A program made the position numbers and the translations under genes. From Dehalococcoidia bacterium UBA1162 (GTDB lineage Bacteria; Chloroflexota; Dehalococcoidia; GIF9; UBA5629), in assembly GCA_002311135.1 (NCBI GenBank), contig DBZK01000020.1, positions 16,903 through 80,902 of the forward strand: a stretch of 64,000 nt of DNA, in the 5' to 3' direction. The notes beneath the pieces are model-generated. The model saw only the letters and a program-made list of their open reading frames with translations, did no database searches and had not been told where the DNA came from. Below are positions 42,489 to 62,633 of the stretch, piece by piece. The stretch's first letter is position 1; every line of letters starts with the position of its first letter.

Positions 42489-42520
42489 GTCACCACTGCA
42501 CAAATATCGGCATGTCTATC
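42489..42520 (+). repeat. Modular repeat family, copy R0 (Y module plus start of Z)
   Basis: GTCACCACTGCACAAATATCGGCATGTCTATC matches the Y-Z junction of the other copies. Confidence 0.6.
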
Positions 42521-42530
42521 GCGACATTTG

Positions 42531-43322
42531 TCAACCGAGATTAATAACTGCCCGGTGGTACAGGTAAATCAACCTGCAGTTGATCTCAATGCTATCCTCC
42601 GGGGAAGGGAAAGGTCCGCTCGCTCCCAGGGATTTTGTTAGCCTGTCATCGAAAGCTGCCTGCGGGAAAGCATTTCTGAGTTCTGCAGCAGTGGCGTTCA
42701 GGTTTTGAAGAGAGGAGGAAGTCATACCCTGACCTAAAAACGAATAATTAAAATTATTCTGGAAGATCTCGATGCTGGGTTCTATCGACGACTGGTCATA
42801 GAGTCGTATGAAACGTATAGTTTGAAAGGCCACATTCTTAATTTTCTCTTTGACAGGGCTCCAAACGGGGATGCCACCCAGTAATATCGTTCTGGGCAGG
42901 CTAAACTTCATTCTGGTCTTTGTTGACTCATTCTCCATATATTTTTGTATCGTCCCCTGCAGAATTAAAAATACATTCCCGGTCTGCACGCTCCTCTCTT
43001 TATTATTATTGTCCCGGAATGTGACCTTTCCCTCCTCACGTTTCAGAGTATGTGCCCTGAATCGTCCAGTTGGGGGCTTGTGAAGCTCAAAGTCTTTATA
43101 CATAAATGCCACAATGCCAATGGCATTCAGACTTTGAACGATAGCTTTGGCTGCCTCGGCAGTTGGGTAACTGGCAATGATCCTGGGAATCTTCCCGGCC
43201 AGTAGAAGGCGTGTTCCATAGAGGTCCTTGTTGACTATAGCTGCGGCTTTCTCCACCAAACTCGCTTCAAGCACGTCCGGCGGAGCTATCGCAACGTCTA
43301 TGACGCCTAATTCCGATGGCAT
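42531..43322 (-). CDS. Hypothetical protein (263 aa)
   Basis: Long ORF with lower GC than the core. No family recognised. Confidence 0.55.
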   Translation of the reverse strand: MPSELGVIDVAIAPPDVLEASLVEKAAAIVNKDLYGTRLLLAGKIPRIIASYPTAEAAKAIVQSLNAIGIVAFMYKDFELHKPPTGRFRAHTLKREEGKVTFRDNNNKERSVQTGNVFLILQGTIQKYMENESTKTRMKFSLPRTILLGGIPVWSPVKEKIKNVAFQTIRFIRLYDQSSIEPSIEIFQNNFNYSFLGQGMTSSSLQNLNATAAELRNAFPQAAFDDRLTKSLGASGPFPSPEDSIEINCRLIYLYHRAVINLG

Positions 43323-43483
43323 ACCACTTACTCAGTATTACCTTAGCACGACTTTTGAAGAATGGTAAAGTACGGTATCGCAGAGGAAGCTTTTGAACAC
43401 TTAGCGCAGAATCTTTTCGAAGCGGTAGGTTATCGCATCAACTAAAGGCAGACTGAACTACTGAATACGGTCGTCTCGATCTA

Positions 43484-43550
43484 CGCTAACATTGAACGAA
43501 CATCGGCATGTATGTTAATCCATAATTACAAATCAGAGGGCCAAGGTTGC
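43484..43550 (+). repeat. Modular repeat family, copy R1 (Y + W modules)
   Basis: ATTGAACGAACATCGGCATG followed by TATGTTAATCCATAATTACAA. Confidence 0.7.
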
Positions 43551-43562
43551 AGTTAAAAGAAA

Positions 43563-43587
43563 ATGGGTTCGAATCCCATCAGCCCCA
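43563..43587 (+). other. Isolated tRNA 3' fragment (T-arm plus 3' acceptor strand), a possible att-site remnant
   Basis: ATGGG-TTCGAAT-CCCAT is a T stem-loop. CAGCCCC-A fits an acceptor 3' strand plus discriminator. No matching 5' half (GGGGCTG) or anticodon arm lies upstream. Confidence 0.55.
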
Positions 43588-43601
43588 CTATATCAGCAGC
43601 G

Positions 43602-43745
43602 TCACCTTCTCTGGTCGAACCTACGCCTCAGCAGCAAGGAGGCGATGGTGACCTTCTGTATCTCGATGGTGCCGCCGGCAAGGCCCCAGCCCCAGGCGTC
43701 GTGCATCATGCGTTCCACCGGGTAGTCCTTAGAGTAAATGGATAC
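43602..43745 (-). pseudogene. C-terminal remnant of an acyl-CoA dehydrogenase
   Basis: YSKDYPVERMMHDA...GGTIEIQKVTIASLLL resembles the conserved ACAD C-terminus (YPVER..RDA...YEGT.EIQ). The N-terminal roughly 330 aa are absent. Confidence 0.6.
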
Positions 43746-43934: not shown

Positions 43935-44393
43935 CTATTTGCGGTCGTCTAAACGCCGGTTTATTTTTTCAATTTTTTCGTTTAGATTCTCCAGATGTTG
44001 CAGAATAGTTTCAATCTCTCTTTCTGCTTCGATGTTTATTTCATAGTCCGCATTGGCTTTTTTCTCGGCGTGACGACCCTGGAGATTCTGGCCTATCATT
44101 ATCAATGGCATAAGGAAGATCTGAATCATATTGGAGATAAAAAGCCATAAGACAAAAGCAGGCAAAGGGTCAAATCTTAATGCAACAGGCGCCAATGCAT
44201 TCCAGGAAAGCCAAAAAATAGTCCATGCAAAAATAATGAAGAAAAATCCCATAGTGCCGATGCGCTCGGTGATCCAAAGTGCAATCCGGTCAAGATAAGT
44301 CAGGCTTTTCCTGTGTTCAATGTTTATGTTACGTATTTGTTTACGTAACTTCTTAAGCTCATCAAGCGAAAGCGGTGATTTTTGTTTCTCCAC
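43935..44393 (-). CDS. DUF1003 family membrane protein
   Basis: Two TM segments followed by QNLQGRHAEKKA and a coiled C-terminus. GTG start. Confidence 0.7.
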   Translation of the reverse strand: MEKQKSPLSLDELKKLRKQIRNINIEHRKSLTYLDRIALWITERIGTMGFFFIIFAWTIFWLSWNALAPVALRFDPLPAFVLWLFISNMIQIFLMPLIMIGQNLQGRHAEKKANADYEINIEAEREIETILQHLENLNEKIEKINRRLDDRK

Positions 44394-44478
44394 TAGCTAC
44401 AGTCCATTATACATTTCGTGAAACGGATATTTGCAGCAGACAGACTGCCCAAATATCTTGGTTACGTTGTTAAAAGAG

Positions 44479-44871: not shown

Positions 44872-44927
44872 GTATAGTACCTCCTAAAAAACTTTATTAA
44901 ATAAATACTAGCAGAGTGAACATGTGG

Positions 44928-44968
44928 AAGTAATATAATCGAGGCACAATATGTTAAATAGTTATGAT
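44928..44968 (-). promoter_or_regulatory. Shared promoter-like motif, copy A (upstream of the csbD-like gene)
   Basis: Minus strand reads TCATAACTATTTAAC-N13-GATTATATTACT, ending about 55 nt before the start codon. Confidence 0.45.
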
Positions 44969-45096
44969 ATTGGCGGCGTTATCGGTGAATAGATTGATGA
45001 AATAGGGGATGGGCACATATTGACAGTGTCAACACAAAACAGCACAATAATATGCCAAAGCGGTATGCGGTATAAAGTTATACAAGGAGAAAAACT

Positions 45097-45379: not shown

Positions 45380-45775
45380 CTACCTCTGGGGTATCACGAC
45401 ATTGGAACTAATGGTATAAGTTGTCGAAACGGAAAAAGTCTCACTAGTGCTTACTGCAGTCAATGTTACGGTCCTTGTTCCCGTGGGCGAATCTGCGGGT
45501 TCAGTATAACTACTCTCGCCAGCATTATACAAAACATTGGAGAAATAGGTTACAGTCCCTCCAGTGGCTATCGCGTTTGTAAGAGTTAACTTGGCAGGTT
45601 TGTTTACTGAGAAATGTATTATGACGGGACTACTATTAATACCGTAGACGTTATTGTCCGTCCATATGCGCGCGTCCAACTTAGCAGATCCAGAAGGTTG
45701 TACGCAGGATACGGGAATAAGAAGGACCAGAAGAAGGACAGCAAAAGCAGAGAGCCTTGCCTTTATCATGACCAC
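45380..45775 (-). CDS. Small secreted protein (131 aa) with a signal peptide
   Basis: GGAGG RBS, hydrophobic N-terminus (AFAVLLLVLLIPVSC), and a T/S-rich beta-type remainder. Confidence 0.6.
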   Translation of the reverse strand: MVMIKARLSAFAVLLLVLLIPVSCVQPSGSAKLDARIWTDNNVYGINSSPVIIHFSVNKPAKLTLTNAIATGGTVTYFSNVLYNAGESSYTEPADSPTGTRTVTLTAVSTSETFSVSTTYTISSNVVIPQR

Positions 45776-45800: not shown

Positions 45801-45853
45801 AACATAGTCTTCGATATGTACGTTAATCCATAATAACAATAGAGCTAAAGTTG
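45801..45853 (+). repeat. Modular repeat family, copy R2 (partial Y + W)
   Basis: ATATGTACGTTAATCCATAATAACAATAGAGCTAAAGT is nearly identical to the W module of R3. Confidence 0.75.
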
Positions 45854-46092: not shown

Positions 46093-46236
46093 GTTTATTA
46101 CTCCTTCTTGATTTATATTATGTATCTGTGGCGACTATTATACAAATCGCTACCAAATGACCTATTTTTACCTGATTCAAGGGTAATTCCTTATCTCTTT
46201 TATGTTGCGAGTCCCCATAATAAAAATTATCTGAAT

Positions 46237-46938
46237 TCATTTTTGCTTTACATCGAGCTTAACAACCGGTTTAATAATGACCTTATCCTGGCCGGTAACA
46301 TTAACCGATTTTTCAGCATCAAAATCGAACGTTAGCACCGTAGTCTTACCTTCAACAACGTCAAAGGAATTCACAAATTTAAGCTCACCGCTCGGGATCG
46401 TTGCTGACTCAATGGTATTGTCGGAAAAACCTACGCTTGCACTATCTATAACTAATCTTACCTGCGTATATTTCCCTGCTAGCACTTCACCTGCCGCAAA
46501 AAGCTCGTCGAGTCCCTTAATTTTGAGTAGGTCAAAAGTACTGTTCCCGGTAATATTGATTTTTATCCAGGTATCACCGCCCTGCTGCTGATTCTGCGGC
46601 CCCTGATCCTGTGCGTCGCCCTTGGTGGTATTGTCGCTGATTGGTTTATTTCCCTGGTTTTCCTGGCCAGTGCCAGTTGTATGGATTTCGATGCTTGAAA
46701 TCGTAAGCATCACACTAGTGATCTCTTTCTTTTGCGGAGGAGCATCGGTCATATGTACTTCTATATGACCTGTGCCGGCTCCGGTTGTGTAACTAGGGCT
46801 ACCTGCTGGGCCCTGAACATTGCTGCCAGTATTGCCCTGGGTCGGTTGAGCTTGCTGTCCTGAAGTACAAGCTGCCAATGGCAGTGTAAAAATACAGGCT
46901 ATGAGCAATATCGTTAATATAGACAATAATCTCTTCAT
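46237..46938 (-). CDS. DUF4382-like lipoprotein
   Basis: Lipobox LAAC. HIEVHMTDAPP...SIEIH...FDLL...GKYTQVRLVI...PSGELKF...LTFDFDAEKS matches the DUF4382 pattern. Confidence 0.65.
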   Translation of the reverse strand: MKRLLSILTILLIACIFTLPLAACTSGQQAQPTQGNTGSNVQGPAGSPSYTTGAGTGHIEVHMTDAPPQKKEITSVMLTISSIEIHTTGTGQENQGNKPISDNTTKGDAQDQGPQNQQQGGDTWIKINITGNSTFDLLKIKGLDELFAAGEVLAGKYTQVRLVIDSASVGFSDNTIESATIPSGELKFVNSFDVVEGKTTVLTFDFDAEKSVNVTGQDKVIIKPVVKLDVKQK

Positions 46939-46990
46939 CTCTTCCCCCGCATATTTATAGTTTTAAAAATAATAGCAAGATGAGAATGGA

Positions 46991-47032
46991 ATAGTGATAT
47001 AATCTGGCGTGAATTTGTTAAATAGTTATGAC
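46991..47032 (-). promoter_or_regulatory. Shared promoter-like motif, copy B (upstream of the DUF4382 lipoprotein gene)
   Basis: Minus strand reads TCATAACTATTTAAC-N13-GATTATATCACT, ending about 55 nt before the start codon. Confidence 0.45.
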
Positions 47033-47131
47033 ATTCATATGACCCCTCCGGAATAAGTTAGCAAAACCGATAGAATTTTAATTTATACTGGACTATAAAC
47101 CGGTGTTGGGTCATCTTAGCCGTAAGAATTG

Positions 47132-47273
47132 ATCACCACTGGACCAACATTGGCATGTCTATCCGGCCATGCGTACGATTATTCTGTGCCATTTTTTGTT
47201 TCAATCTAATGCTGGTCAATATCGGGCGAACATCGGTATATACGTTAATCCATAATAACAATAGAGCTAAAGT
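47132..47273 (+). repeat. Modular repeat family, copy R3 (Y-Z-X-Y-W)
   Basis: The 64-nt core differs from copy R7 at 2 positions by hand alignment. It ends with the W module. Confidence 0.85.
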
Positions 47274-47360: not shown

Positions 47361-47777
47361 CTAAAATTTAATATAGCCATAATAACCAAGCAGGCCAATT
47401 ATCAGCAGTGTTATCCCTATAATAAGGACGATAGGTGCTATTAATGATGCAATACCCCAAAACTTCCATTTACGCTGACTTTTTCGAAACTGTTCTATGC
47501 TATCCCATTTTTTATACTGCCATGCCCATTCGTTGCCTTTTATTCCAAGAATTATCATCACAGCTATCCCAATGAGTGGGAATGGTATTAATGCAAGAAG
47601 GGAAATCCATACGCGATGACTTATACCCCAGATCCATGTCAGTGAGAAAGCTCCCCAATTCCAACCTTTAATTTCAGGGGGAACGATGGATGAGAACCCT
47701 TGCCCCGATGTATTTAGGATAGTGTCATTGATTTGAGCATTCGGTGAATTTTGCTGCATAACATCATTATATTTCAT
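47361..47777 (-). CDS. Membrane protein (DUF2628-like)
   Basis: The GWNWGAFSLTWIWG motif and three TM segments resemble DUF2628 proteins. Confidence 0.55.
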   Translation of the reverse strand: MKYNDVMQQNSPNAQINDTILNTSGQGFSSIVPPEIKGWNWGAFSLTWIWGISHRVWISLLALIPFPLIGIAVMIILGIKGNEWAWQYKKWDSIEQFRKSQRKWKFWGIASLIAPIVLIIGITLLIIGLLGYYGYIKF

Positions 47778-47939: not shown

Positions 47940-48992
47940 ATGATTGATCCCATTTACGAAAAGTTGCCGGGAGCACTTAACGCTCGGTCCATGGCGTACC
48001 CCGCGGTCAAATGTAAGGAGTTCTATGATCTGGTCACCTTCCTTTTCACCCCTGAAGAGGCTGCTACATTCGTCGCCATGCCGCTGGGGCTGGCTACGGT
48101 TGAGGAAATAGCTGAAAACCTCTCCATGAAGGACCTGAAGAAACTGGCAGGCCAGCTCGAGACGATGGCCGACAAAGGCCTCATCCATATACGTGATAGG
48201 AGCGGCAAGAAATTATACGAAGCACTTCCCTTCGTGCCTGGCATCACAGAGTACCAGCTCATGAGGGGCATAGTGGATGAGCGCCATAAGAAGATCGCCA
48301 CTCTTCTTAGGGATTACTCCAAGGCTATGATCAATACACTCATGTCCACCAACCCTCCTCCGATGGAGTTTCACGCTCCCGGAAAGAAGGTGGCCGTGGA
48401 TAGGGAGATCGAGCACAAATCAACCATCGTGCCATTCAAAGAGCTGAAAGATCTGATAATGGATACGGAATATATCTCGGTTGGGACCTGCATCTGCAGG
48501 CACCAGGCGGCCCTGCTGGGCAAACCGTCGGACAAGCCGGTTAACAACTGCATGGTCCTCGGAGAGTCGGCTAAATTCGCCGCCGAAAGGGGCTTCACAA
48601 CACGCCTTACCAAAGAAGAGGCAATCAAAAGGATCGAGGAAGCCGAAGATGCGGGCCTTATCCACACATTCGCCAACAGCCCGGACCTTTACTCGAACCT
48701 GCTCTGCAACTGCTACAAGGATCGCTGCATGATCATTAAGGGCGTAAGCAAATCGCCCGTCCCCAGCCTGGCCGTAAATGCAAGGTGGGTGGTCCAAATT
48801 AATGAAGATGACTGCACGGCCTGCGAGGCCTGCATCCCGCGCTGCCAGATGGACGCCCTTAAGATGGTTGAAGGCAAGCTGGTGCGGGATGAGAAACGTT
48901 GCATAGGCTGCGGCATCTGCGTGTGGACCTGCCCCGCCGATGCTATGACCCTCGAGCAGAGGCCCGCCGCAAAAATACCTCTGAAATCATAA
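47940..48992 (+). CDS. 4Fe-4S dicluster domain-containing protein
   Basis: C-terminal CTACEACIPRC and CIGCGICVWTCP ferredoxin motifs, with additional Cys motifs (CICRH, CNCYKDRC). AGGTGA RBS. Confidence 0.75.
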   Translation: MIDPIYEKLPGALNARSMAYPAVKCKEFYDLVTFLFTPEEAATFVAMPLGLATVEEIAENLSMKDLKKLAGQLETMADKGLIHIRDRSGKKLYEALPFVPGITEYQLMRGIVDERHKKIATLLRDYSKAMINTLMSTNPPPMEFHAPGKKVAVDREIEHKSTIVPFKELKDLIMDTEYISVGTCICRHQAALLGKPSDKPVNNCMVLGESAKFAAERGFTTRLTKEEAIKRIEEAEDAGLIHTFANSPDLYSNLLCNCYKDRCMIIKGVSKSPVPSLAVNARWVVQINEDDCTACEACIPRCQMDALKMVEGKLVRDEKRCIGCGICVWTCPADAMTLEQRPAAKIPLKS

Positions 48993-49093: not shown

Positions 49094-49256
49094 GTTCTGT
49101 GCCACTCTATATTTCAGTCTAACGCCAGTCACCATTGCACGAACATAGGCATGTCTATCCGGCCATGCATACGATTATTCTGTGCCATTCTTTATTTCAA
49201 TTTAACTATGGAACCTTGCGCGAACGTAGGGATTACAGTTAATTCATACGTATAAC
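49094..49256 (+). repeat. Modular repeat family, copy R4 (X-Y-Z-X-Y-W')
   Basis: The longest copy. Its core has 4 mismatches to R7 by hand alignment and ends in the W' variant GGGATTACAGTTAATTCATACGTATA. Confidence 0.85.
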
Positions 49257-49373: not shown

Positions 49374-50039
49374 TTAACGGCAATTGACTGTGTAATTTAT
49401 CGGGAGCGATGTTATGTTATTGGGAGTCAAAACATTGATTTTATATGAACCGGAAGCCGTTTCACCTAAATCATAATTTAATGATATTGCTTGTGAACCT
49501 GCTGCATTAAAGGTCATGCTTTGGATATGACCCCAGTTGTCATCGCTTCTTTCCCACCTGTAAGTAACTGTGCCGGGACCATTGACAGTGATAGTAGCGT
49601 AAAAGGTGAAGGTTCTTGGACAAGGACCGTTATAGGTTGATTGTGCAGAACTACCTATAACACTGGTTACTGCGAATGGCACGGGTGCCGGTGAGTACGC
49701 CGTGTTGTTGACTGTAATCTGTGCTGTGCTGCTAGCGTTGCTGGCGGCATTGGTAGCAGTTAAAGTATAAGTAGTGATTGTAGCGGGTGATATTACCTTG
49801 CTCCCTACGGCGTCAACCTGACCAATACCGTTATCTATATTAACCGAGCTAGCTCCGGTAACATTCCATGCCAGTGTTTGTGTGCCACCAGTAGATGGAC
49901 TGCTACTAAAGGTCCCTATAACCGGAACCTGTCCTGCCGGTGGGTTAGCCGATGATGTGGGAGGTGACATTGTAATACAACCCGGGATGAGAATCACCAA
50001 TGATAGTAATGATAATGAAAGAAAGACTAATTTTTTCAA
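49374..50039 (-). CDS. Lipoprotein with an Ig-like repeat of the same type as in the FHA proteins
   Basis: GGAGG plus 8 nt precedes the TTG at 50039 (the ORF opens at 50093). Lipobox IPGC. Module TLAWNVTGASSVNIDNGIGQV...TTYTLTATN. Confidence 0.7.
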   Translation of the reverse strand: MKKLVFLSLSLLSLVILIPGCITMSPPTSSANPPAGQVPVIGTFSSSPSTGGTQTLAWNVTGASSVNIDNGIGQVDAVGSKVISPATITTYTLTATNAASNASSTAQITVNNTAYSPAPVPFAVTSVIGSSAQSTYNGPCPRTFTFYATITVNGPGTVTYRWERSDDNWGHIQSMTFNAAGSQAISLNYDLGETASGSYKINVLTPNNITSLPINYTVNCR

Positions 50040-50105
50040 TGTAGTTACCTCCAAATATTTATTGTCCGTGAAATGATATAGGAAGCTTAACATCCGGGAA
50101 ATGGA

Positions 50106-50147
50106 TTAGTAATACAATTGGGAGGTAAAAAGTTGAATAGTTATGAT
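50106..50147 (-). promoter_or_regulatory. Shared promoter-like motif, copy C (upstream of the Ig-like lipoprotein gene)
   Basis: Minus strand reads TCATAACTATTCAAC-N13-AATTGTATTACT, ending about 65 nt before the TTG start. Confidence 0.4.
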
Positions 50148-50204
50148 ATTTAGGTGCCTGTCGTAAACTTCACTTAAGAGATAATTGGCATAGTCCGAGT
50201 GGGA

Positions 50205-50287
50205 TCATTTGCCACCATTCTTTATTTCAATCTAACGCTCGTCACCACTGCACGAACATAGGGATTACAGTTAATTCATAAGTATAT
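50205..50287 (+). repeat. Modular repeat family, copy R5 (X-Y-W')
   Basis: CCATTCTTTATTTCAATCTAACGCTCGTCACCACTGCACGAACATAGGGATTACAGTTAATTCATA. Confidence 0.8.
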
Positions 50288-50765: not shown

Positions 50766-51572
50766 ATGCTTATGAAACGCAGTAATTTCCATGTTTACCT
50801 AGTCCTTCCGGCTGTAATAGCCTTGCTCGGAATGGTTTTCGCAAGCTGCACGCTTCTCAAACTGGCCGCGCCCTCGGCTCCGGCGACCCCGCCGGCCCCG
50901 GCCGCTTCAGTCGCGTCCGCCAACGTGACACCCGCAACTCCTGCAACTCCAGAAGTACCTAGCACTCCACCCGCCGTGGAGAAGCCAGCGCCAACTCCCA
51001 ATGGTACATTGCCCGTCATAAGCTATTTCTCCGCATCGCTCAATACCATTCCGCCCAACGGCATCAGCATACTGGTATGGAGCGTGAGCGGGGCCGATTC
51101 GGTAAGCATCGACAACGGCATCGGAAAGGTGGACGCCCAGGGCCGCCATGCCGTCCTGCCCGTTGCCAGCACTACCTATACGCTCGCGGCAACCAGTTCG
51201 GCGGACAGCACGACGGCACAGGTAACAGTGTCTATCTCACCACACCAGGCCGCCTCGCCGCAATACAGTCCAGGCTACTATCTCACTCGTGTCGGCCAGA
51301 CGGCTGTGGTCGGATCCCCGCTGACTATCAACCAGAACGCAGAAACTTCCAAGGGCTTCAAGTGGGTGGTTGATTACTATGATTCGACAATACTTTCATA
51401 TGTGGGCAGCAACACTATAAAGCTTAACGCCATTGCCCGGGGTGTGGACACCCAGCAGCAATTTATCTTTATGCCGCTGCATTCAGGCGATACAATGATA
51501 CTTGTTTCCTATGTTAACGACAAGACTCCGACACGATTTGATTCCACGATCTATAACATCCATATCCAGTAA
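50766..51572 (+). CDS. Secreted protein or lipoprotein: Pro/Ala linker, Ig-like repeat, C-terminal chagasin-like (I42) inhibitor-like domain
   Basis: Signal with FASC. Ig-like module ILVWSVSGADSVSIDNGIGKV...TTYTLAATS. The C-terminal NAETSKGFKW...FIFMPLHSGDT resembles NPTTGY.W...F.F....G of chagasin-type inhibitors. Confidence 0.6.
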   Translation: MLMKRSNFHVYLVLPAVIALLGMVFASCTLLKLAAPSAPATPPAPAASVASANVTPATPATPEVPSTPPAVEKPAPTPNGTLPVISYFSASLNTIPPNGISILVWSVSGADSVSIDNGIGKVDAQGRHAVLPVASTTYTLAATSSADSTTAQVTVSISPHQAASPQYSPGYYLTRVGQTAVVGSPLTINQNAETSKGFKWVVDYYDSTILSYVGSNTIKLNAIARGVDTQQQFIFMPLHSGDTMILVSYVNDKTPTRFDSTIYNIHIQ

Positions 51573-51624
51573 TGGCAGAAGAAGGATGTATCCTTGCGGG
51601 GACGGGCGGAGTCCCTGAACCAAA

Positions 51625-51639
51625 CACGAACATCGGCAT
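51625..51639 (+). repeat. Modular repeat family, short seed match (Y core only)
   Basis: CACGAACATCGGCAT is identical to the Y-module core. It is too short to be certain. Confidence 0.3.
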
Positions 51640-53267: not shown

Positions 53268-53738
53268 GCTGGCACAGGGGAGGGCGGCGGGCCTCCGTTA
53301 CCCGGTTTCTTAGAGCCTGAAATCGAGGATGTCCGGGAACCTCTCCCTTATATAGAGCATGGCACCCAGCATATGCACCATGCACCACGACCCGGCACAG
53401 AAACCAGGAGACTGCTGAGGGAAAAGGCGGTGAATATCAAGGAGAAAGCCACCAAGGCAGTCAGTTGCATAAACGAATCTGCCGGTTCCATAAGCAAAGG
53501 GTAAGATTAAAACGGCCATCAATCTAATACAGAGCACACTATCACCGAATGGTGATGGCTCAATTGGAACTATTGAAAAACGTACTTTATTCCGACACTA
53601 TTGAGAGTGCACTGCTGAGGCATCCTGTCAACTAACCGGTTGATCGCCTTCCAACCCGTGCAGTGCATAGGCACCCTAAACGTCTACTTGGGTAGGAGGT
53701 ATCGGATACAAGCTAAAAAGATAGGGTAACCCAGATAA

Positions 53739-54932
53739 CTATTCCTTCTTTATTATGCAGGCAACGCCCTGTCCCATGCCACAGCACATGCTGGCTGATC
53801 CATAGGTGCCTCCTTCCATTTGTAGTATCCTGGCGAGTGTACCTATAAGGCGGACGCCTGAGGCGCCAAGCGGATGTCCGATAGCGAGAGCGCCTCCTTT
53901 AACGTTGACCCTGTTGCCGTCTATACCGAGTTCTTTAATAGCGTACATCGGGACTATGCTGAAGGCTTCATTGATTTCGAAATAGTCTATAGTTTTGATA
54001 TCGAGGCCGGCATTTTTAAGCGCTTTCTTTGTTGCCGGGACCGGGCCTTCTCCCATGGTCGACGGCTCCACGCCCGCAACGCCAAATGATATAAAGCTGG
54101 CCATTGGTTTAAGTCTGAGTTTGTTGGCCTTTTCACGTGACATAACAAGCATACAGGTGGCGCCTGCATTCATGGGTGAAGAATTTCCTGCCGTGATCTG
54201 GCCCTCCGGCTTATAGGCGGGCTTCAATGACGAGAGAATTTCAAGTGTCGTGTCGCCACGTACGCAAGCGTCATAATCGAAAAGCTGTTTGGTGCCATCA
54301 GCAAGCGTTACTTCAATTGGAAGTATTTCGTCTTTGAAATAGCCCTCCTTCTGAGCAGCAGCCGCCAAATGGTGGGACCTGACAGCGAATTCATCCATGT
54401 CCTTCCTAGTGTAGTCGGTCTTCTTAAGCAATTTCTCAGCCGTCAGTCCATTGCTAGCAGCATTGGCCATGTCCATATACGCATATTGCGGATCGGTAAA
54501 AAGTTCGTACGGTGGTTTCATGGCGCCGCCCCCGTCCATGGGCACGTGTGTCATGTGTTCGGTCCCGCATACAAAAATAATATCGGCATAACCAGTGGCT
54601 ATACTCATAACCGCTGTCCTCACGCCGTTAAAAGAAGATCCACATGCAGTATCGACCTGCTGGGCTGCAATGGTAACCGGCAATTTGCCAAGGAGCACCG
54701 GGAACCTACCACCGCCGGTATACGTCTCGAGGAAAGGATTTGCCACTCCGACTATGCATTCATCTATTTCTTCGGGATTGATCTTCGTTCGGTTGATGAT
54801 GGCGTTCATCAACATTCCGGCAACGTGGTCCATTCTCCAGCAATTGAGCAAGTCCTTATCCGGGTCCTTCGGCCTGGAACGTGAAAACGGGGAACGTAAG
54901 TAATCAACAAGTACTACATCGCGCGCTAACAT
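53739..54932 (-). CDS. Thiolase (acetyl-CoA C-acyltransferase) family protein
   Basis: Paralog of 41202..42401. Both share the N-terminus DYLRSPFSRSRPK.P.KDLL, the VDTACGSS active-site Cys and C-terminal CCGMGQG. Confidence 0.9.
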   Translation of the reverse strand: MLARDVVLVDYLRSPFSRSRPKDPDKDLLNCWRMDHVAGMLMNAIINRTKINPEEIDECIVGVANPFLETYTGGGRFPVLLGKLPVTIAAQQVDTACGSSFNGVRTAVMSIATGYADIIFVCGTEHMTHVPMDGGGAMKPPYELFTDPQYAYMDMANAASNGLTAEKLLKKTDYTRKDMDEFAVRSHHLAAAAQKEGYFKDEILPIEVTLADGTKQLFDYDACVRGDTTLEILSSLKPAYKPEGQITAGNSSPMNAGATCMLVMSREKANKLRLKPMASFISFGVAGVEPSTMGEGPVPATKKALKNAGLDIKTIDYFEINEAFSIVPMYAIKELGIDGNRVNVKGGALAIGHPLGASGVRLIGTLARILQMEGGTYGSASMCCGMGQGVACIIKKE

Positions 54933-55097
54933 GAAAATACTCCTCAGATTTTTATTTATTTATAGTACAACTACAATATTGCGAAGAAAGTCGCAACTGG
55001 ATCATGCGTCTGCTGTCGTCCCTGTCAACATGCATCGATACAGGCCTTTCGCAGTCATCGACCAGTAGCTTATTTATACCGGCTATATTAAATGTGC

Positions 55098-55529
55098 TTA
55101 AGCCTTGGGTTTCTTGGCAACGGCGGCCTTGAGAATCAGGATAGCCACGTCCTCATCGCGCTGGTTCTTGATGTGCCACTGGTTAGAGATCACACCCATG
55201 TCACCTTTGTCCTTAATTTCGATAATCTCTGTTACTAGGTGTATCGTATCGCCGAGTTTAACCGGGGTTGTGAATCTCACCTTATCCATGCCATAAAATG
55301 CAATTACAGCGATGTCGTAAGGGGCTACAAACCCGGATGCAATGGAGAGAACCAGGAAGCCGTGCGCTATGCGGCCGCCGAAAATGGTCTTTTTTGCAAG
55401 CTCCGCGTCCACATGTATTCCGTACCAGTCACCGCTTAGAGCGGCGAACATCACGATGTCTGCCTCCGTTACCGTTCGGCTGCGGGTTACAATTTTCTGC
55501 CCTACTTTGAAATCCTCAAAATATAGCAT
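55098..55529 (-). CDS. MaoC-like (R)-specific enoyl-CoA hydratase / dehydratase
   Basis: Hot-dog fold pattern FAALSGDWYGIHVD...IAHG. Confidence 0.85.
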   Translation of the reverse strand: MLYFEDFKVGQKIVTRSRTVTEADIVMFAALSGDWYGIHVDAELAKKTIFGGRIAHGFLVLSIASGFVAPYDIAVIAFYGMDKVRFTTPVKLGDTIHLVTEIIEIKDKGDMGVISNQWHIKNQRDEDVAILILKAAVAKKPKA

Positions 55530-55543
55530 AGCACTCCTTAATA

Positions 55544-57235
55544 CTACTTTTTTTGTTTGGCTGCTTCCTCTTCAACAAGGACACGGCGCAGTACCTTGCC
55601 AACCGCAGTCTTGGGTAGAGTTTCGCGGAATTCCACAAATCTAGGCACCTTGTAGGCCACGAGTTTCTCCCGGCAGCAGCCCTGGATATCCTCGGCCGTC
55701 GCTGACGCCCCCTCATTAAGTACAATCCACGCCTTTACTGCTTCGCCCTGTTTTGCGTCGGGGATACCGGCCACGCAGACCTCGGCAACAGGCGGGTACT
55801 TGGTTATGATCTCTTCAACCTCGCGTGGCCAAACCTGGAAGCCGCTGGGCTTGATTAGATCTTTCTTACGCGAGGTTAAAAATATATGTCCCTCTTCATC
55901 CATATAGCCGATATCGCCGGTGTAAAGCCATCCATCCCGGAGCATTTCTTTTGTTTCTTCCGGTCTGTTCCAGTAGCCAACCATTAACTGCGGCGCCTTC
56001 ATTATGATTTCGCCCTCAACACCGGGGGGCATATCGCCATCGCCAGTAGATATATCGCCTATTCTCACAACGACGTCGGGCAAAGGCAGACCCGTAGACC
56101 CCTGTTTCCATTTGCCTAAGTACGGCGTTATACAAGAAGCCATCGTAGACTCTGTAAGGCCATAGCCTTCTATCAGTCGACCACCGGTCAGATCTTCAAA
56201 CCGTTTCTTGGTTTCGGCCATGAGCGGAGCCGCACCTGAGATGCAGAATCTCATCGATTTAAAATCAACTTTTCCGGCTTTTACCCTGGGATGCTCCAAC
56301 AATGATATGAATAAGGCAGGTACGGCCGGGAAGAATGCGGGCTTATCGCGTTGAATGGTCTTAACGAGATCATCGCGATCACGGGGATTGGCCACCAGCG
56401 ATATAGGAAGATGCGCCACTATGGCGGTGGACATTATGCCGTAAGTAGCAAACGCATGGAATAATGGCATCAGCCCCATTATGACGTCCTTGTAAATGAC
56501 TGCCTGACTTCCAAACCAGGCAAAGTATTGAAGACCGGTTATAACTTGTGAATGATGGGTCCCAATTACACCCTTCGGTATACCCGTGGTTCCTCCGCTG
56601 AAAAGTATCAGCGCATAGTCTTCGGGCGATATTTTTACATCCGGACGCCTGGCTCCCGCATGTTTTCGCAGCAAATCTTGCATCCAGTAGTCGCCAGGTT
56701 GTAATTTAATATAGTGTCCTCCTTTTTTCTCCATAAGTAGCGTAAAGGCCGCTCGTGTTACGGGCGGCAGATATTCTTTGATATTGGTAGCAACGACCAA
56801 CTTGACCTTGGTGTTCGGCTGGATTTTCTTAAACTGATTATAGAAGGTGGTCAGTACCACAACTGTCTCTGCTCCACAATCCACCAGAGCATGCTCCAGC
56901 TCGGGTTCGGTATAAAGAGGATTAAGGTGCACCAGAATCCCGCCCGCTTTCCACGTCCCCCAACGGCAGATTATCGCCTGGGGACAGTTGGGCATGATTA
57001 GCGCCACTCTATCACCTTTTTTCACTCCTTTAGCCACCAGTGCGGTGGCGAATTCGTCACTCAACTTCTGCACTTCAGAATAGGAAAGTTTGCTTCCCTT
57101 AAACAAGAGCATGGGATAATCAGGATGCTCCCGGACAGCATCATCTACATAATCGATCAACGTTTTCTGCGGATAGGGTTGAAGAGAATGCGGTACACCG
57201 GCGTCGTAATTGCTTAGCCATCTGTATTGAGTCAA
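55544..57235 (-). CDS. Long-chain fatty acid-CoA ligase (AMP-binding)
   Basis: AMP-binding motif LFSGGTTGIPKGV, plus YGLTE and GDIGYMDEEG motifs. Confidence 0.9.
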   Translation of the reverse strand: MTQYRWLSNYDAGVPHSLQPYPQKTLIDYVDDAVREHPDYPMLLFKGSKLSYSEVQKLSDEFATALVAKGVKKGDRVALIMPNCPQAIICRWGTWKAGGILVHLNPLYTEPELEHALVDCGAETVVVLTTFYNQFKKIQPNTKVKLVVATNIKEYLPPVTRAAFTLLMEKKGGHYIKLQPGDYWMQDLLRKHAGARRPDVKISPEDYALILFSGGTTGIPKGVIGTHHSQVITGLQYFAWFGSQAVIYKDVIMGLMPLFHAFATYGIMSTAIVAHLPISLVANPRDRDDLVKTIQRDKPAFFPAVPALFISLLEHPRVKAGKVDFKSMRFCISGAAPLMAETKKRFEDLTGGRLIEGYGLTESTMASCITPYLGKWKQGSTGLPLPDVVVRIGDISTGDGDMPPGVEGEIIMKAPQLMVGYWNRPEETKEMLRDGWLYTGDIGYMDEEGHIFLTSRKKDLIKPSGFQVWPREVEEIITKYPPVAEVCVAGIPDAKQGEAVKAWIVLNEGASATAEDIQGCCREKLVAYKVPRFVEFRETLPKTAVGKVLRRVLVEEEAAKQKK

Positions 57236-57569: not shown

Positions 57570-57800
57570 CCTTTTACAAAATAGAATAAACCTTTGATGA
57601 ATCGATCAATATGCCACGTCAAACGTTTCTTTTATATTTGACCTCTGCCTAGACTATTTGTGAGTTAACGATAAAACATCGTTTTGGCCCAGTATTATTA
57701 CCTGGATACTTTACTATGTTAAATTGAAAGAAAACCGATAAAAAACAATGTTTCTCTATTATATTACGCTAATGCATTCAATACAGTCCATTGTCCGAAT

Positions 57801-57893
57801 TCCAATCTAACACCGGTCACCATTGAACGAACATCGGGATGTTCATCCGACCATGCGTACGATCACTCAATACCATTTTTTGTTTCAATCTAG
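57801..57893 (+). repeat. Modular repeat family, copy R6 (X-Y-Z-X, the most diverged)
   Basis: TCCAATCTAACACCGGTCACCATTGAACGAACATCGGGATGTTCATCCGACCATGCGTACGATCACTCAATACCATTTTTTGTTTCAATCTAG. Confidence 0.75.
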
Positions 57894-58111: not shown

Positions 58112-61100
58112 ATGGATATATTTGACGTGGCAACCGGCCCCCAGGCTAAGGGTAGTAAGGCGCATGCGGAGGCACTTGAGAGGAAGTTGAATAACGTCCT
58201 CTGTCCAGTTTCGGCCGACATAGTTATCGACAGTCTGCCGGGCTTGTTTTACATGTGCGATATGGAAGGCAAATTTGTACGCTGGAACCAAAATGATTTG
58301 AAACTGACCGGCTATACAGACGAAGAGGTACCTAGTCTGAATGCACTTGACATTATTTCACCTGAACATAGAAAGTTAGCATTGGATAAGATGCTGGAAG
58401 CATTTAATAACGGTGTCGCCATTGCAGAAATAGACATCCTAACTAAAACCGGAGAGAAGATACCACACCACGTCACAGTTAAACGTGTTTCCATAGGTGA
58501 AAAGACATATTTGGTGGGTATGGGTATAGATATCACCGATCGAAAGAAAGCCGACGAAGCGCTGGTTGAGAGTGAGGATCAACTCAAAGCCTCTCTGGAG
58601 AATGCTCCGGACGGCGTCTATATGAATGACCACAAGGGCAACTTTCTCTACGTTAACCGCAAGTGCGAGGAGATATCAGGTTACCAGCGTGAAGAGGTTA
58701 TAGGTAAAAACTTCCTGGAGGTGAATCTTATCCCTGAGAATGACCTGAGCAGGGCTGTAGAGTTGTTTCAGGATACTATTAAGGGTGGATCCACGGGTTC
58801 GGTTGCATTGGAACTCATCAGGAAGGACGGCCGCCGTATACCTATAGAAATCAGAGCCAATGTCGTGCGCTATAAAGGCCAGGCAGTCATGCTCTCCTTT
58901 GTCAGGGATATAAGCGAGCGGAAGCGGGTTGAGTCAGCCCTGCAGGAGAGCGAACAAAGCTACCGCCGGCTGGCTGATTACCATAAGCAGCTCAACGATA
59001 TTTCAATTTTATTTATAGAGGCAGCTGACAAGCAAAACCTGTTCGATAGAATTGCAGAGTCCTTCCGCCTTCTTACGGGTGCTATGGCGGCGACTTTTTC
59101 GCTTTATGATCAGCAAACCCGGGACTTGAAAGTCGTATCATTATCAATCGACCCTGTTTCCAGACAAAAAGTAGACTTCATTTTGGGACCCGATTTGTTT
59201 GAGATGCGCATGCCGATTAGTGCAGATGTTATGGAGCAAATGCTCAGTCAGGGCATTAGAAGACTAAAAGACCTGCACGAACTTTCATTCGGGGTAATAC
59301 CCCGGGATATCTCTGATGCAGCCATGGAAGCTACCGGGTGCCAACAGATAATTGGCCTGGCCATTAGTTATGCTTCAGAGCTGATTGGCGCCTGTGCAGC
59401 ATATTTGCCGGGAGATCAGCCCGTGGTGCCGGACGACGCATTAAAAACCTACGCATACATATCAGGGCTGGCGGTTAAACGCAAGCGGTCGGAGGAAACT
59501 CTGCAAAAGACCGAGAATATCTATCGCCTGCTGGCTGAAAACATGACGGACACCTTGTGGATGATGGACATGGATCTGAATATTACATGGATGAGCCCGT
59601 CAAGTGTGAAGGCAAGGGGCATGAGCCTGGACGAAATAGCTGCCATACCGCCGGATAAACAGGCCACTCCTGAATCGTTTGGAAGAGCAATGATACTCTT
59701 TGAGAAGATGCTCCGAATTGAAAGGGAAGAACGCAATCCAACTCCCGGCGCTGCTGTTTCAATGGAAATGGAGTTCTATAGCGGAGGCGGTACTACACGC
59801 TGGTTCGATTGCACATTCCAGTTCATCAGGGACAAGCAGGGAAAGGCGACGGGTATTCTTGCACAGGGAAGGGATATAACCGAGCGCAAACGGGCGGAGG
59901 AAACTCTGATAAAGACCGAGAATATCTATCGCCTGCTGGCTGAAAACATCTCCGACACCGTGTGGATGATGGACATGGATCTGAATATTACGTGGGCGAG
60001 CCCGTCAAGTGCGAAATTAAGGGGCTTCAGCATGGATGAAATACTTGCCCTGCCGCTGGACAGGCAACTGACCCCTGAGTCACTTGGAAAAGCAGTGAAC
60101 TTGTGGGGGAAATGGATGCATGTTGAGCAGAAAGGACGCACTCCAGACCCTAACGGCTCCATTTCGATAGAGTTGGAGTTCATCTGCAAAGACGGCCATA
60201 CCGTCTTGCTCGACTGCGCACTCCAGTTCATCAGGGACGAAAAGGGAAAGGCAACGGGCATTCTTGCTGCGGGAAGGGATATAACTGAGCGCAGGCAGGC
60301 AGAGCAGGTACTGCGGGAGAGTGAGGCGCAATACCGCTTACTGTCGGAGCACATGGCAGAAGGTTTATTTCTATTGGATATGAACCTTAAGATTACGTAC
60401 ATAAGCCCCTCCGTGGAAAAAATACGCGGCTTTACGCCTCTGGAGGCCATGGAAATGCCGCTAGAGAAACATATTACGCCGGAGTCGCTCAAACTGGCGT
60501 TAGAAGTGTTTTCAGAGGAGCTACCCAAGGTGGAGTCTGGCCCTAACTATAATCCCATCCCCATGTTAGAACTTGAGTATTACTGCAAGGATGGAACCAC
60601 CGCATGGGCGGAAAATAAGTTCAGTATTATACGGGACTCTAGCGGCAATCCGCTCTCCATCCTGGGCGAGATCCATGACATCACCGATCGCAGGCGGGCG
60701 GAGGAAGCGCTACGGGAGAGCGAGGCGCAGTACCGCCTGCTATCCGAACACACGACTGACACCGTATGGCTGATGGATATGAACCTTAAACCCACCTACC
60801 AGAGTCCCTCCGCGGAAAAACTGCGCGGCTACACACCTCAGGAGGTTTTGGACCTGCCGCTGGAGAAGCAAGTTGCACCCGATTCGCTCAGACTGGCGTT
60901 AAAAGTGTTTTCAGAAGAGCTACCTAAAATGAATGCTGATCCGGGCTATAATCCTGTCATCAAATTGGATATTGAGTATTTCCGCAAGGACGGCACAACC
61001 GTGTGGGCGGAAAGTAATTTCAGTCTCATACGGGACCCGAGCGGCAAGCCCATATCCATCCTGGCCGAGGCCCGGGACATCACCGAGCGCAAGCTATCTG

Positions 61101-61714
61101 AAGAAAAACTTGAAAAAAGCTACGAATCCCTCAAGAAAACCTTTAATGACGCCATCAATACCATGGTCAAAATCATGGAAATGCGAGATCCATATACTGC
61201 AGGCCATCAGCAGAAAGTAACCGCCCTGGCAACCGCCATAGCCAGAGAAATGGAATTAGTGGATACCCGAATTGATCAGCTCAAGATGGCGGCAATAATT
61301 CATGATATTGGGAAAATATATATTCCTTCTGATATACTCAGCAAGCCCGGAAAACTTAGCGACATAGAATTTAGATTGATCAAAACCCATTCCCGGAATG
61401 GCTACGATATTGTGAAAGGCATGGATTTTCCTAGTTCTGCTGCAGAGGCTATTTTGCAGCACCATGAAAGGCTGGATGGTTCGGGTTATCCTAATAATCT
61501 AAAGGATGACGATATAACCCTTGAAGCAAAAATACTGGCGGTTGCAGATGTAGTTGAAGCCATGTCTTCACACAGGCCATACCGGCCTGCATTGGGCATT
61601 GATAAGGCACTTGAGGAAATATCAAAGAACAAGGGCAAGTTATATGATCCCGATGTGGCGGATGTTTGCCTAAAGCTCTTCACCAGCGGCAAGTTCGAGT
61701 TTAAACCTGTTTGA
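58112..61714 (+). CDS. Multi-PAS / GAF sensor protein with a C-terminal HD-GYP domain (putative c-di-GMP phosphodiesterase)
   Basis: Repeated PAS modules, each followed by DIT(D/E)RK(K/R)AEE linkers. The HD-GYP domain has IHDIGKI and HHERLDGSGYP. Confidence 0.88.
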   Translation: MDIFDVATGPQAKGSKAHAEALERKLNNVLCPVSADIVIDSLPGLFYMCDMEGKFVRWNQNDLKLTGYTDEEVPSLNALDIISPEHRKLALDKMLEAFNNGVAIAEIDILTKTGEKIPHHVTVKRVSIGEKTYLVGMGIDITDRKKADEALVESEDQLKASLENAPDGVYMNDHKGNFLYVNRKCEEISGYQREEVIGKNFLEVNLIPENDLSRAVELFQDTIKGGSTGSVALELIRKDGRRIPIEIRANVVRYKGQAVMLSFVRDISERKRVESALQESEQSYRRLADYHKQLNDISILFIEAADKQNLFDRIAESFRLLTGAMAATFSLYDQQTRDLKVVSLSIDPVSRQKVDFILGPDLFEMRMPISADVMEQMLSQGIRRLKDLHELSFGVIPRDISDAAMEATGCQQIIGLAISYASELIGACAAYLPGDQPVVPDDALKTYAYISGLAVKRKRSEETLQKTENIYRLLAENMTDTLWMMDMDLNITWMSPSSVKARGMSLDEIAAIPPDKQATPESFGRAMILFEKMLRIEREERNPTPGAAVSMEMEFYSGGGTTRWFDCTFQFIRDKQGKATGILAQGRDITERKRAEETLIKTENIYRLLAENISDTVWMMDMDLNITWASPSSAKLRGFSMDEILALPLDRQLTPESLGKAVNLWGKWMHVEQKGRTPDPNGSISIELEFICKDGHTVLLDCALQFIRDEKGKATGILAAGRDITERRQAEQVLRESEAQYRLLSEHMAEGLFLLDMNLKITYISPSVEKIRGFTPLEAMEMPLEKHITPESLKLALEVFSEELPKVESGPNYNPIPMLELEYYCKDGTTAWAENKFSIIRDSSGNPLSILGEIHDITDRRRAEEALRESEAQYRLLSEHTTDTVWLMDMNLKPTYQSPSAEKLRGYTPQEVLDLPLEKQVAPDSLRLALKVFSEELPKMNADPGYNPVIKLDIEYFRKDGTTVWAESNFSLIRDPSGKPISILAEARDITERKLSEEKLEKSYESLKKTFNDAINTMVKIMEMRDPYTAGHQQKVTALATAIAREMELVDTRIDQLKMAAIIHDIGKIYIPSDILSKPGKLSDIEFRLIKTHSRNGYDIVKGMDFPSSAAEAILQHHERLDGSGYPNNLKDDDITLEAKILAVADVVEAMSSHRPYRPALGIDKALEEISKNKGKLYDPDVADVCLKLFTSGKFEFKPV

Positions 61715-61844
61715 TATCCGCTGAATGTCGGCAGGTTAACGAAATGATGCAGGCTGGATTGATATATCAGGACAGGCTGATATCCAACTGATCGCTGGCG
61801 GTAAAGATTTTATACTGCATGTTGATTCTGAAGGATGCCCTCCC

Positions 61845-62417
61845 CTATTGGTTGACTATGGTTTTCAAATCCCAATCATACCCTGCCGCTTTCTCACCCC
61901 CGGTTAGCGGCCCAAGAGAAACGACTTTTTGAGCCTGATAATATAGCTGGGCATCGCTTAACTTTAAGTTGCCGGGAACTTGGAAACACACCACTGTCTT
62001 CTTAGTTTGACCGATAGGAACGGTCAGAAGTGGTGGCTTATCCATATCTAATAGCTCTGGTATCCGATAATACTTACCCCCGGCCACGACATTCCAATGA
62101 TCGTAACCGCTAATATCCGGGTCTCTTGGTTGTTCGGTTGGTGCATTAGTTGGTGCTGGCGGTGGACCCGTGATTTCATACCCATTATTGGTGAAAACAA
62201 TATCCACGACCCAATAAGTCTCGTTATTCGGAGGGCTGTAAACTGACCCCTGCGCTCTCAGAAACCCAACTATGGTAACATGCCCACTTATATCCGCTGG
62301 GTATCGCGTTTGTCCGGTTGGCGTGTTAGTCGGAACTGACGACTGACAGCCTAAAATTAATAGGACAACGACCAAACATAGTGTAAGCGGGATAAAAGGG
62401 AAACATCGATTTTTCAT
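61845..62417 (-). CDS. Lipoprotein (190 aa), function unknown
   Basis: GGGAG plus 7 nt precedes the ATG at 62417 (the ORF opens at a TTG at 62489). Lipobox ILGC. Contains an internal PTNTPTGQ / PTNAPTEQ duplication. Confidence 0.65.
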   Translation of the reverse strand: MKNRCFPFIPLTLCLVVVLLILGCQSSVPTNTPTGQTRYPADISGHVTIVGFLRAQGSVYSPPNNETYWVVDIVFTNNGYEITGPPPAPTNAPTEQPRDPDISGYDHWNVVAGGKYYRIPELLDMDKPPLLTVPIGQTKKTVVCFQVPGNLKLSDAQLYYQAQKVVSLGPLTGGEKAAGYDWDLKTIVNQ

Positions 62418-62543
62418 CACGTCACTCCCTTCATTAAGACACAGCCAGCCCCTTGTCGTATTTGTATTATAAGATACTATGAGACTCAACCGCCATGATA
62501 CAAATCATTCGTTCAAAAAGTCAATCAACTGAGCCTTCTCACT

Positions 62544-62633
62544 ATTGAACAAACATCGGCATGTCTATCCGGCCATGCGTACGATTATTCTGTGCCATTC
62601 TTTGTTTCAATCTAAGTCTGGTCAACATCGGAC
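62544..62633 (+). repeat. Modular repeat family, copy R7 (Y-Z-X-Y')
   Basis: Reference copy of the 64-nt core: AACATCGGCATGTCTATCCGGCCATGCGTACGATTATTCTGTGCCATTCTTTGTTTCAATCTAA. Confidence 0.85.

Follow-up and report, generated by a model that had tools for sequence, protein, structure and literature searches.

The stretch analysed here, referred to as the window, covers 64,000 nt of contig DBZK01000020.1 (positions 16,903–80,902) from Dehalococcoidia bacterium UBA1162 (GCA_002311135.1), and its right-hand 20 kb contains a family of intergenic repeats that an earlier note had assembled from four modules, designated X, Y, Z and W (with the homologous W′). Module searches, repeat finding and blastn (word size 7, all copies as queries) recovered eight repeat loci spanning 42.49–62.65 kb in a single shared orientation, and these methods found no copy in 1–42.4 kb of the window. 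The four quoted modules were present where they had been placed, and 0 of 100 shuffled windows matched any of them; the repeat family is real, co-oriented and confined to the right-hand 20 kb, as had been proposed. The core of the repeats corresponds to the 3′ end of the gene that encodes the beta clamp of DNA polymerase III (dnaN), and the repeats are probably attR/attL-type junctions of integrative elements that have their attachment (att) site at this gene end and have become stacked into an array.

All of the copies lie on the minus strand. R0 (42490–42513), the array's final copy, consists of the core ATGCCGATATTTGTGCAGTGGTGA with about 9 nt of a Z arm remaining (to 42522), and adjoins the terminator of a convergent thiolase gene. 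R1 (43486–43535) comprises a core (43486–43509) and a W-type element arm (43510–43535), and R2 (45807–45851) comprises a W arm followed by about the first 7 nt of the core and then by unrelated sequence. An extra W-type arm without a dnaN core, beginning TTTTTATTATGG and absent from the earlier list, lies at 46197–46226. Three loci are double sites: in R3 (47133–47273), a W arm (47273–47240) is followed by a degenerate core (47239–47216), X, a Z arm and a core (47156–47133); in R4 (49095–49254), a W′ arm (49254–49234) is followed by a degenerate core (49233–49210), X, a Z arm, a core (49152–49129) and X with a hairpin; and in R7 (62539–62645), a degenerate core (62645–62622) is followed by X, a Z arm and a core (62562–62539), with TAG replacing the Trp codon in the R7 core. 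R5 (50205–50286) consists of a W′ arm (50286–50266), a core (50265–50242) and an X-type flank (50241–50205), and R6 (57799–57892) of X (57892–57867), a Z-like arm (57866–57841), a core (57840–57817) and a partial X flank. The right flank beyond the window was read from metagenome contigs of the same population (L125–L128, 99.98–100% identical), which revealed a ninth copy, R8, at about 64.67–64.74 kb (approximately 64665–64741) and no further copy to the right of R8 up to 72.4 kb. Over 64 nt, the cores of R3 and R7 differ at two positions, those of R7 and R4 at four, and those of R3 and R4 at five, essentially as had been counted by hand. The tandem recurrence of an X-Y-Z unit also stood, although its period is 83 nt (81 nt in R4) rather than about 85 nt.

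The copies in the window are spaced 83–7575 nt apart with genes inside the intervals, rather than being identical short repeats set regularly about 60–80 nt apart around unique spacers, in agreement with the earlier exclusion of a clustered regularly interspaced short palindromic repeat (CRISPR) array, and neither inverted pairs at the copies nor matches in plasmid or phage collections were found, in agreement with the exclusion of a classical insertion sequence end. A non-autonomous transposable element, of the miniature inverted-repeat transposable element (MITE) type or resembling repetitive extragenic palindromes, that happens to contain a dnaN-like stretch would account for units that are short, intergenic, repeated and modular. 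However, no terminal inverted repeats or target-site duplications were found, only four weak inverted pairs occur in the whole window and none of them at the copies, and all of the copies share one orientation within one 22-kb stretch. This candidate of the earlier note is thus very improbable.

Read on the minus strand, module Y corresponds to the last eight codons and the stop codon of Dehalococcoidia dnaN, (I/M)PMFVQW followed by a stop, an identity that had previously been missed. The 24-nt core, ATG CCN ATG TTY GTN CAR TGG TGA, encodes MPMFVQW and the stop, which form the invariant end of Dehalococcoidia DnaN, and the differences between Y copies fall mostly at third codon positions. A degenerate DNA pattern of Y, matching six of the eight window copies, was scanned in one genome per GTDB species, and at least 119 loci were found in the species representatives, compared with about four expected by chance in 596 Gb. 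The matches listed come nearly all from Dehalococcoidia or Chloroflexota metagenome-assembled genomes (MAGs); among them, 67 copies end full dnaN open reading frames (ORFs; ending SSPGVIRPVG.DNYVHVVMPMFVQW and a stop), 69 are non-coding, and the other 11 fall within a different open frame. R8, which reads HPGFIRPVGVDNYDHVVMPMFVQW followed by a stop, retains 25 dnaN codons and matches the DnaN C-terminus common to 65 of the 120 closest DnaN proteins found, and its stop is followed by CAGCATTAGATTGAAATAAAGAATGGCACAGAATGTGCC, that is, module X with a small hairpin. As X comes after these 25 codons and their stop in R8, this module represents the downstream sequence of a dnaN-type end. The core is almost certainly derived from dnaN.

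Z, W and W′ sit upstream of the core, in the place of dnaN coding sequence, and we infer from comparison that they are the element-side (P) arms. Z-like arms also occur in L010, L118, L057, L084 and L068, and W-like arms in L007, L069 and L075, all of these being loci in other genomes. In a further locus (L046, 4095–4696), the real dnaN ends in TAG, and 578 nt beyond it lies another 25-codon piece of the dnaN 3′ end, GKGVIRPAGDKNYRHVVMPMFVQW and a stop. This piece resembles R8 in type and suggests that there is another point of insertion, some 60–75 nt upstream of the stop. Short contigs with Dehalococcoidia-type dnaN ends or copies were also encountered in bins outside Chloroflexota (L008; L079, a Hyphomicrobiales MAG; L010, a Halobacteriota MAG; L012, a Bryobacteraceae MAG; L019; and L085), and these contigs are probably mis-binned.

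The third-position variation of Y bears on a functional transcript of the repeats, for which two forms were considered: a structured small RNA, and a peptide of 19 aa, MAQNNRTHGRIDMPMFVQW, encoded by the minus-strand Z-Y part. An ATG-to-stop frame is kept in four copies, and third codon positions account for most of the differences. However, the codon-like variation of Y is explained by descent from different dnaN alleles rather than being a sign of a peptide gene, no Shine–Dalgarno sequence is present at the repeats, whereas the real cassette genes have GGAGG, and a stop replaces Trp in R7. The small-peptide reading was rejected, the codon-like variation being inherited from dnaN. The structured RNA family considered in the earlier note fared no better, there being no Rfam match at gathering score in the window and no folding signal, with z-scores of −0.9 to +1.2 over both strands. 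We regard a functional transcript of either kind as barely credible.

Among the matches listed, the 69 non-coding copies show mirror symmetry centred on the CC dinucleotide of the Pro codon, with the consensus ACARACAT(C/G) CC NATGTYGT. The number of mirrored positions about CC was 5.97 of 10 in the non-coding copies, compared with 2.1–3.6 for centres shifted by 1–6 nt and 3.5 for real dnaN ends, and the mirror reaches only about 9 bp on each side of CC. The core of R6, GAACATC CC GATGTTC, is a perfect 7-bp mirror, and the site in L031 reads CAAACATC-CC-GATGTTTG. The copies thus have the form of a short att site with imperfect inverted half-sites about a central dinucleotide, where crossover would take place. 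The short mirror, the folding z-scores and the lack of a GTTRRRY/RYYYAAC pair on inspection bear out the earlier statement that the repeats are not canonical attC sites.

The second cores of the double sites, R3b, R4b and R7b, which have the Z arm in common, show a mismatch of 3% over the 43 nt to the left of CC, 23% over the 19 core nt to the right, and 81% beyond the stop, so that identity falls from 97% to 77% exactly at CC. Near-identical element arms that meet older, diverged dnaN-type ends at CC are what should be seen in an attR junction (P-O-B′). Double cores 83 nt apart, of which the first is degenerate, occur three times in the window and also in L057, L062 and L084, where the intervening sequence is different.

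The layout in relatives links these sites to a recombinase. Non-coding copies lie downstream of dnaN and in the same orientation in at least 10 loci (L011, L023, L027, L031, L053, L062, L068, L112, L120 and L123). Neighbouring ORFs of at least 120 aa from the 119 listed loci were clustered by family, and among the matches listed the largest family after DnaN and its antisense artefacts comprised 17 proteins from 16 loci. Its full-length members of approximately 530–580 aa carry Resolvase, Recombinase and Zn_ribbon_recom domains, and the nearest solved structures are those of the SPbeta, TP901-1 and A118 serine integrases. Among the matches listed, 13 of the 17 recombinase genes lie on the strand opposite dnaN, directly downstream of a copy of the core, which is traversed by their ORF; the core crossed in this way is the real dnaN end in L013, L025, L078 and L121. 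Since the recombinase ORF runs antisense through the att core, integration or excision would alter the C-terminal tail of the recombinase. The antisense core in these ORFs reads SHHCTNMGM or VTIEQTSA (L009, L015, L020, L025, L031, L040, L044, L055, L078, L121 and others).

L031 represents a complete 4.1-kb element, consisting of a dnaN end, the recombinase, four small ORFs and a second copy, and its two ends have CCGATGTTTGTTCAATGGTGA.TAAATCCT in common. The same layout of copy and recombinase was found beside phage-like genes in L142, an IMG/VR contig predicted to be proviral. Furthermore, L133 and L134, both from a related clade, encode an identical DnaN protein but carry different genes after dnaN, the DNA diverging about 16 nt past the stop. 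Another phage-like contig (L143, IMG/VR UViG_3300038549_000064), with terminase- or portal-sized ORFs, carries a complete dnaN ending MPMFVQW at 8814–9947; either the phage encodes a clamp of its own or the boundary of a provirus lies at this dnaN. No tRNA or transfer-messenger RNA (tmRNA) genes were found in the 24 related loci tested.

Considering these results, we propose the following scenario for the array. A large serine recombinase would cut at the CC of the Pro codon and join the element to the chromosome; the element would provide a new dnaN-like end, and the old end would come to lie on the opposite side of the insert. With insertion occurring again and again in the most recent end, elements would be stacked head to tail, leaving one co-oriented dnaN-end copy between successive cargo blocks. 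From the neighbours, the symmetry and the identity step, it is likely that the copies are serine-recombinase att junctions; the dnaN-end copies being most likely left by serine-recombinase splicing, the 20 kb would thus be a stack of acquired gene blocks. At the boundaries, the repeats reproduce the 3′ end of the target gene, in the form of the core and, in R8, of 25 codons. R8, an old 25-codon pseudo-dnaN directly after an acyl-CoA dehydrogenase gene, was interpreted as the secondary attB that carries the array. The use of pseudo-attB sites is known for serine integrases (PMC5937489). As the array contains no recombinase, its blocks would be relics that have become fixed, or else cassettes moved passively by a recombinase encoded outside the array. 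The G+C content of the array is 0.47 overall and 0.41 in 43.5–47.4 kb, compared with 0.54 to its left; this sign of a foreign character and the variability between relatives count for stacked integration. The earlier candidate of serial recombination (att) scars is therefore supported by the core being a dnaN 3′ end, the position of copies in relatives beside large serine recombinase genes and downstream of dnaN, the dyad symmetry and the identity step at CC; it is the one candidate of that interpretation to survive.

Several observations weigh against stacked integration by such a recombinase. A tblastn search of the window and the adjoining 8.4 kb on its right found no serine recombinase gene, and no recombinase of another type was seen in the part of the window ORFs scanned; a recombinase beside an att site is absent from the window and present in 16 related loci and one proviral contig. 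No intact dnaN lies within 8 kb of the array, which starts at a pseudo-dnaN, whereas at least 10 related loci start at the intact target gene, and this species' own dnaN locus was not found either, a metagenome scan returning the same locus only and a DnaN protein search returning only the related clade, the PlsY of which is only about 58% identical to that of this lineage. The upstream (B) arm of dnaN that R8 retains at this locus cannot be explained by conservative site-specific recombination. The recurrence of double cores exactly 83 nt apart, in the window and in three other genomes, is not predicted by simple accretion, and most of the intervals between copies in other genomes measure less than 1.6 kb, too little for a recombinase gene, which the simple model does not explain. 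Z- or W-type arms like those of the window were not found on a recombinase-bearing element, the recombinase-linked copies belonging mostly to other arm families, and no free attP sites with W or Z arms were found in viral contigs. The DUF4382-cassette polymorphism with respect to a relative (L140) breaks in 12-nt W-arm repeats, TT(G/T)TTATTATGG, one breakpoint being the solitary W-like arm at 46197–46226, and not at CC. Nine population contigs (five and four), 99.4–100% identical, showed no presence/absence or length variation. Evidence bearing on integration and excision is only indirect, consisting of the variable content after dnaN and the cassette differences from L140.

Between R1 and R0, the cargo is a minus-strand gene for a 263-aa protein without a Pfam match (42531–43322), sharing 78% DNA identity with the relative's contig L137. 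Genes for a DUF1003 protein (43935–44393), a 131-aa secreted protein (45380–45775) and a DUF4382 protein (46237–46938) follow, all on the minus strand and thus in the reading direction of dnaN, and then a 138-aa membrane protein (47361–47777, minus), a 350-aa 4Fe-4S protein (47940–48992, plus) and a 239-aa lipoprotein (49374–50093, minus). The 7.5-kb block between R5 and R6 (50766–57235) contains an I42-like inhibitor, an MFS transporter, a thiolase, a MaoC dehydratase and an acyl-CoA ligase. The block between R6 and R7 (58112–62417) contains a 1200-aa PAS/HD-domain protein (plus) and a 190-aa lipoprotein (61845–62417, minus), and the block between R7 and R8 (62807–64000, plus) a PQQ-type beta-propeller gene running past the window end. 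The multi-PAS gene (58112–61714, plus, with a C-terminal HD domain) has two internal repeat pairs of about 400 nt with 73–75% identity, and the beta-propeller gene (62940–64000, plus) has tandem repeats of 117–129 nt (about 40 aa) with 70–100% identity. Thiolase paralogues flank the array (41202–42401, plus) and lie inside it (53739–54932, minus), with 68% DNA identity over 640 nt, and acyl-CoA ligase paralogues likewise occur both inside and beside it.

A 69-nt block, D10, running from AATATCATAACTATTTAACA to ATTATATTACT, is shared by three places on the minus strand (44903–44971, 46967–47035 and 50082–50150). It sits about 40 nt upstream of GGAGG and the start codon of three unrelated small cassette genes, and at two of the three places it follows a core at a distance of about 95 nt; D10 is probably a common promoter or leader of cassette genes.

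Such units could also belong to an integron-like platform, in which promoter-bearing single-gene units of about 1 kb with a dnaN-mimic site would be inserted, excised and shuffled by a recombinase from another part of the genome, and in which the 83-nt double site would be a working part of the site borne by the cassette instead of a scar. In other genomes, 23 of the 32 intervals that separate one co-oriented copy from the next are shorter than 1.6 kb and only two contain a recombinase gene, although the loci examined there are only 8 kb long and under-sample long intervals. The short intervals carry typical small accessory cargo in the form of single genes (SnoaL, DUF1801, kinase, cyclase and membrane proteins), and the window intervals of 996, 1113 and 1913 nt contain one or two genes. 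The promoter block common to three cassettes, the differences in cassette content and order from L140, and the recurrence of the 83-nt double site across genomes are further points in its favour. However, no trans-acting recombinase has been identified, the mapped polymorphism is not broken at CC, the nine same-population contigs are invariant, and the decay of once-autonomous islands could look alike. No IntI or other recombinase was found among the annotated genes around the array, not every window ORF having been scanned. It may be that non-autonomous cassettes, mobilised in trans, make up the blocks between copies; we consider it unlikely that Dehalococcoidia carry a serine-recombinase-run integron-like system whose promoter-bearing single-gene cassettes are tagged by dnaN mimics, often in the form of an 83-nt double site, and captured and shuffled at dnaN and pseudo-dnaN pads with the recombinase acting in trans, and rather unlikely that such a platform is what lies in the window.

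The surroundings of the array were compared with those in GCA_049510995.1 (L137, L138 and L140), in which PlsY is 85% identical and the same genes occur on both flanks: a glycyl-radical enzyme, a CoA ligase and an acyl-CoA dehydrogenase on one, and MFS_3, PlsY, DUF212 and CoA transferases on the other. Judging from this gene content, the flanks are chromosomal and conserved. In this relative (L137/L140), the acyl-CoA dehydrogenase and MFS_3 genes are only 3.2 kb apart, with a decayed R8 (ATATCTATGTTCGTCCAATGATGA) and no other copy between them. The relative has the 263-aa gene of the final block and lacks the DUF4382 cassette and R3, and its 138-aa and I42 genes lie, with one intact non-coding copy, upstream of the glycyl-radical cluster and not downstream of the dehydrogenase. 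These differences in content and position indicate that the array is variable between relatives.

Truncated gene remnants had been reported near the copies, and they are real: a 138-nt fragment on the minus strand (43599–43736) is 97% identical to the 3′ end of the intact acyl-CoA dehydrogenase gene (about 64739–64876, corresponding to L125 7542–7679). This direct repeat brackets nearly the whole array; its presence suggests that, in addition to the site-specific events, a segmental duplication or an insertion of the Campbell type took place. The array could in principle have arisen without a dedicated recombinase, by segmental duplication and homologous or illegitimate recombination, if a dnaN 3′ fragment with its terminator had been copied here once and then multiplied together with adjacent DNA by unequal crossing-over. 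The bracketing repeat, the 143 nt shared by the downstream flank of R4 and the flank of R8 (80% identical), the tandem units with their 83-nt period, the paralogous thiolase and ligase genes inside and beside the array, and the cassette indel bounded by 12-nt W repeats can all be read in this way. Segmental duplication nevertheless leaves unexplained the same core and mirror-symmetric left arm beside serine recombinase genes in dozens of genomes, the identity step exactly at CC, and the Z and W arm families in the unrelated genomes L010, L118, L057, L007 and L069, and we consider it improbable as the origin of the array.

Beside R1, on the plus strand and thus opposite to the dnaN copies, lies a tRNA- or tmRNA-like 3′ end with a T arm and acceptor strand (43545–43590). 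This 46-nt fragment ends in ACTA rather than ACCA, is without a 5′ part, and matches the Rfam tmRNA model with E = 0.021 when 42–51 kb is searched and E = 0.0011 for a 201-nt region; it is probably a displaced att fragment of an island that targets ssrA or a tRNA gene. Reading the repeats themselves as tmRNA (ssrA) repeats, as this end might suggest, was rejected since no tmRNA was found by ARAGORN or Rfam in the window or the 24 related loci, and the window contains no tRNA gene.

With matches in more than 100 species-level genomes, the dnaN 3′ end appears to be a widespread integration hot spot in Dehalococcoidia. Members of this class are important for organohalide respiration and subsurface carbon cycling, and almost no genetic tools are available for them. 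A serine recombinase with an attB of about 50 bp, by analogy with known enzymes, in a universally conserved gene end would provide an integration tool ready for use in these organisms. A route by which streamlined genomes collect accessory genes is suggested by the secondary landing pads and by the small cassettes that lack a recombinase, and the present findings explain pseudo-dnaN fragments and intergenic repeats that are otherwise mislabelled in annotation. Full-text searching found no publication in which dnaN is named as an attB or connected with the integration of islands in Dehalococcoidia, and the ssrA system is, as far as we found, the serine-recombinase island system described in Dehalococcoidia until now.

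The proposed stacking of elements at a gene end shares features with several known systems. In tRNA-gene islands, according to the Islander concept, the target is split on integration and made whole again by the island, and the fragment pushed aside shows where the far end of the island lies (PMC4383910). The dnaN-end array would follow the same logic of splitting, restoring and displacing, though tRNA-gene islands use tyrosine integrases and tRNA or tmRNA genes, whereas here a large serine recombinase would act on a protein-coding target. In integrons, attC is an imperfect palindrome of 57–141 nt with an R″/R′ consensus that folds as single-stranded DNA, and the head of the array consists of IntI, attI and Pc. 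The window array resembles integron arrays and clusters of attC sites lacking integron-integrases in its co-oriented single-gene cassettes of about 1 kb with a repeated site between them, in the existence of arrays without a nearby integrase, and in similar cargo (SnoaL, DUF1801 and small membrane proteins). It differs from them in having no attC fold or R″/R′ consensus, no IntI gene seen, a site that mimics a gene end with a short mirror about CC, and cassettes with their own promoters.

Staphylococcal cassette chromosome (SCC) elements, including SCCmec, are inserted by the CcrAB serine recombinases in the 3′ end of rlmH/orfX with the reading frame kept, and measure 20–60 kb, usually with ccr genes. 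Common to both are a serine recombinase at the 3′ end of a conserved protein-coding gene and composite tandem elements separated by direct repeats; the phylum, target gene and recombinase subfamily are different, and here most of the units are tiny and without a recombinase. A comparison with SCC elements has also been drawn for the ssrA islands of Dehalococcoides (PMC3146451). These islands are arranged in tandem, bounded by 20-bp repeats of the tmRNA gene end, and carry a CcrB-like serine recombinase of about 540 aa (DsiB/DsiA) on the reverse strand beside attL (McMurdie et al., 2011; PMC3146451). An integration module is missing from some of them, which have been regarded as fixed or as cis-mobilisable (PMC3146451).

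The dnaN-end system is found in the same class as the ssrA islands and would likewise consist of tandem islands downstream of a single-copy essential gene, with direct repeats of the target 3′ end at the boundaries, a reverse-strand serine recombinase beside attL in relatives, recombinase-less units, and conserved element-side sequence next to the repeat. In contrast to the ssrA islands, its target is the protein-coding 3′ end of dnaN instead of the tmRNA gene, and the repeat comprises 24 nt plus a flank instead of 20 nt. Furthermore, the array in the window lies at a secondary pseudo-target and contains many single-gene units of about 1 kb as well as double sites 83 nt apart. A new target gene, a secondary landing pad, recombinase-less mini-cassettes and a recurrent double site may thus be the features that distinguish the proposed dnaN-end system from those described before.

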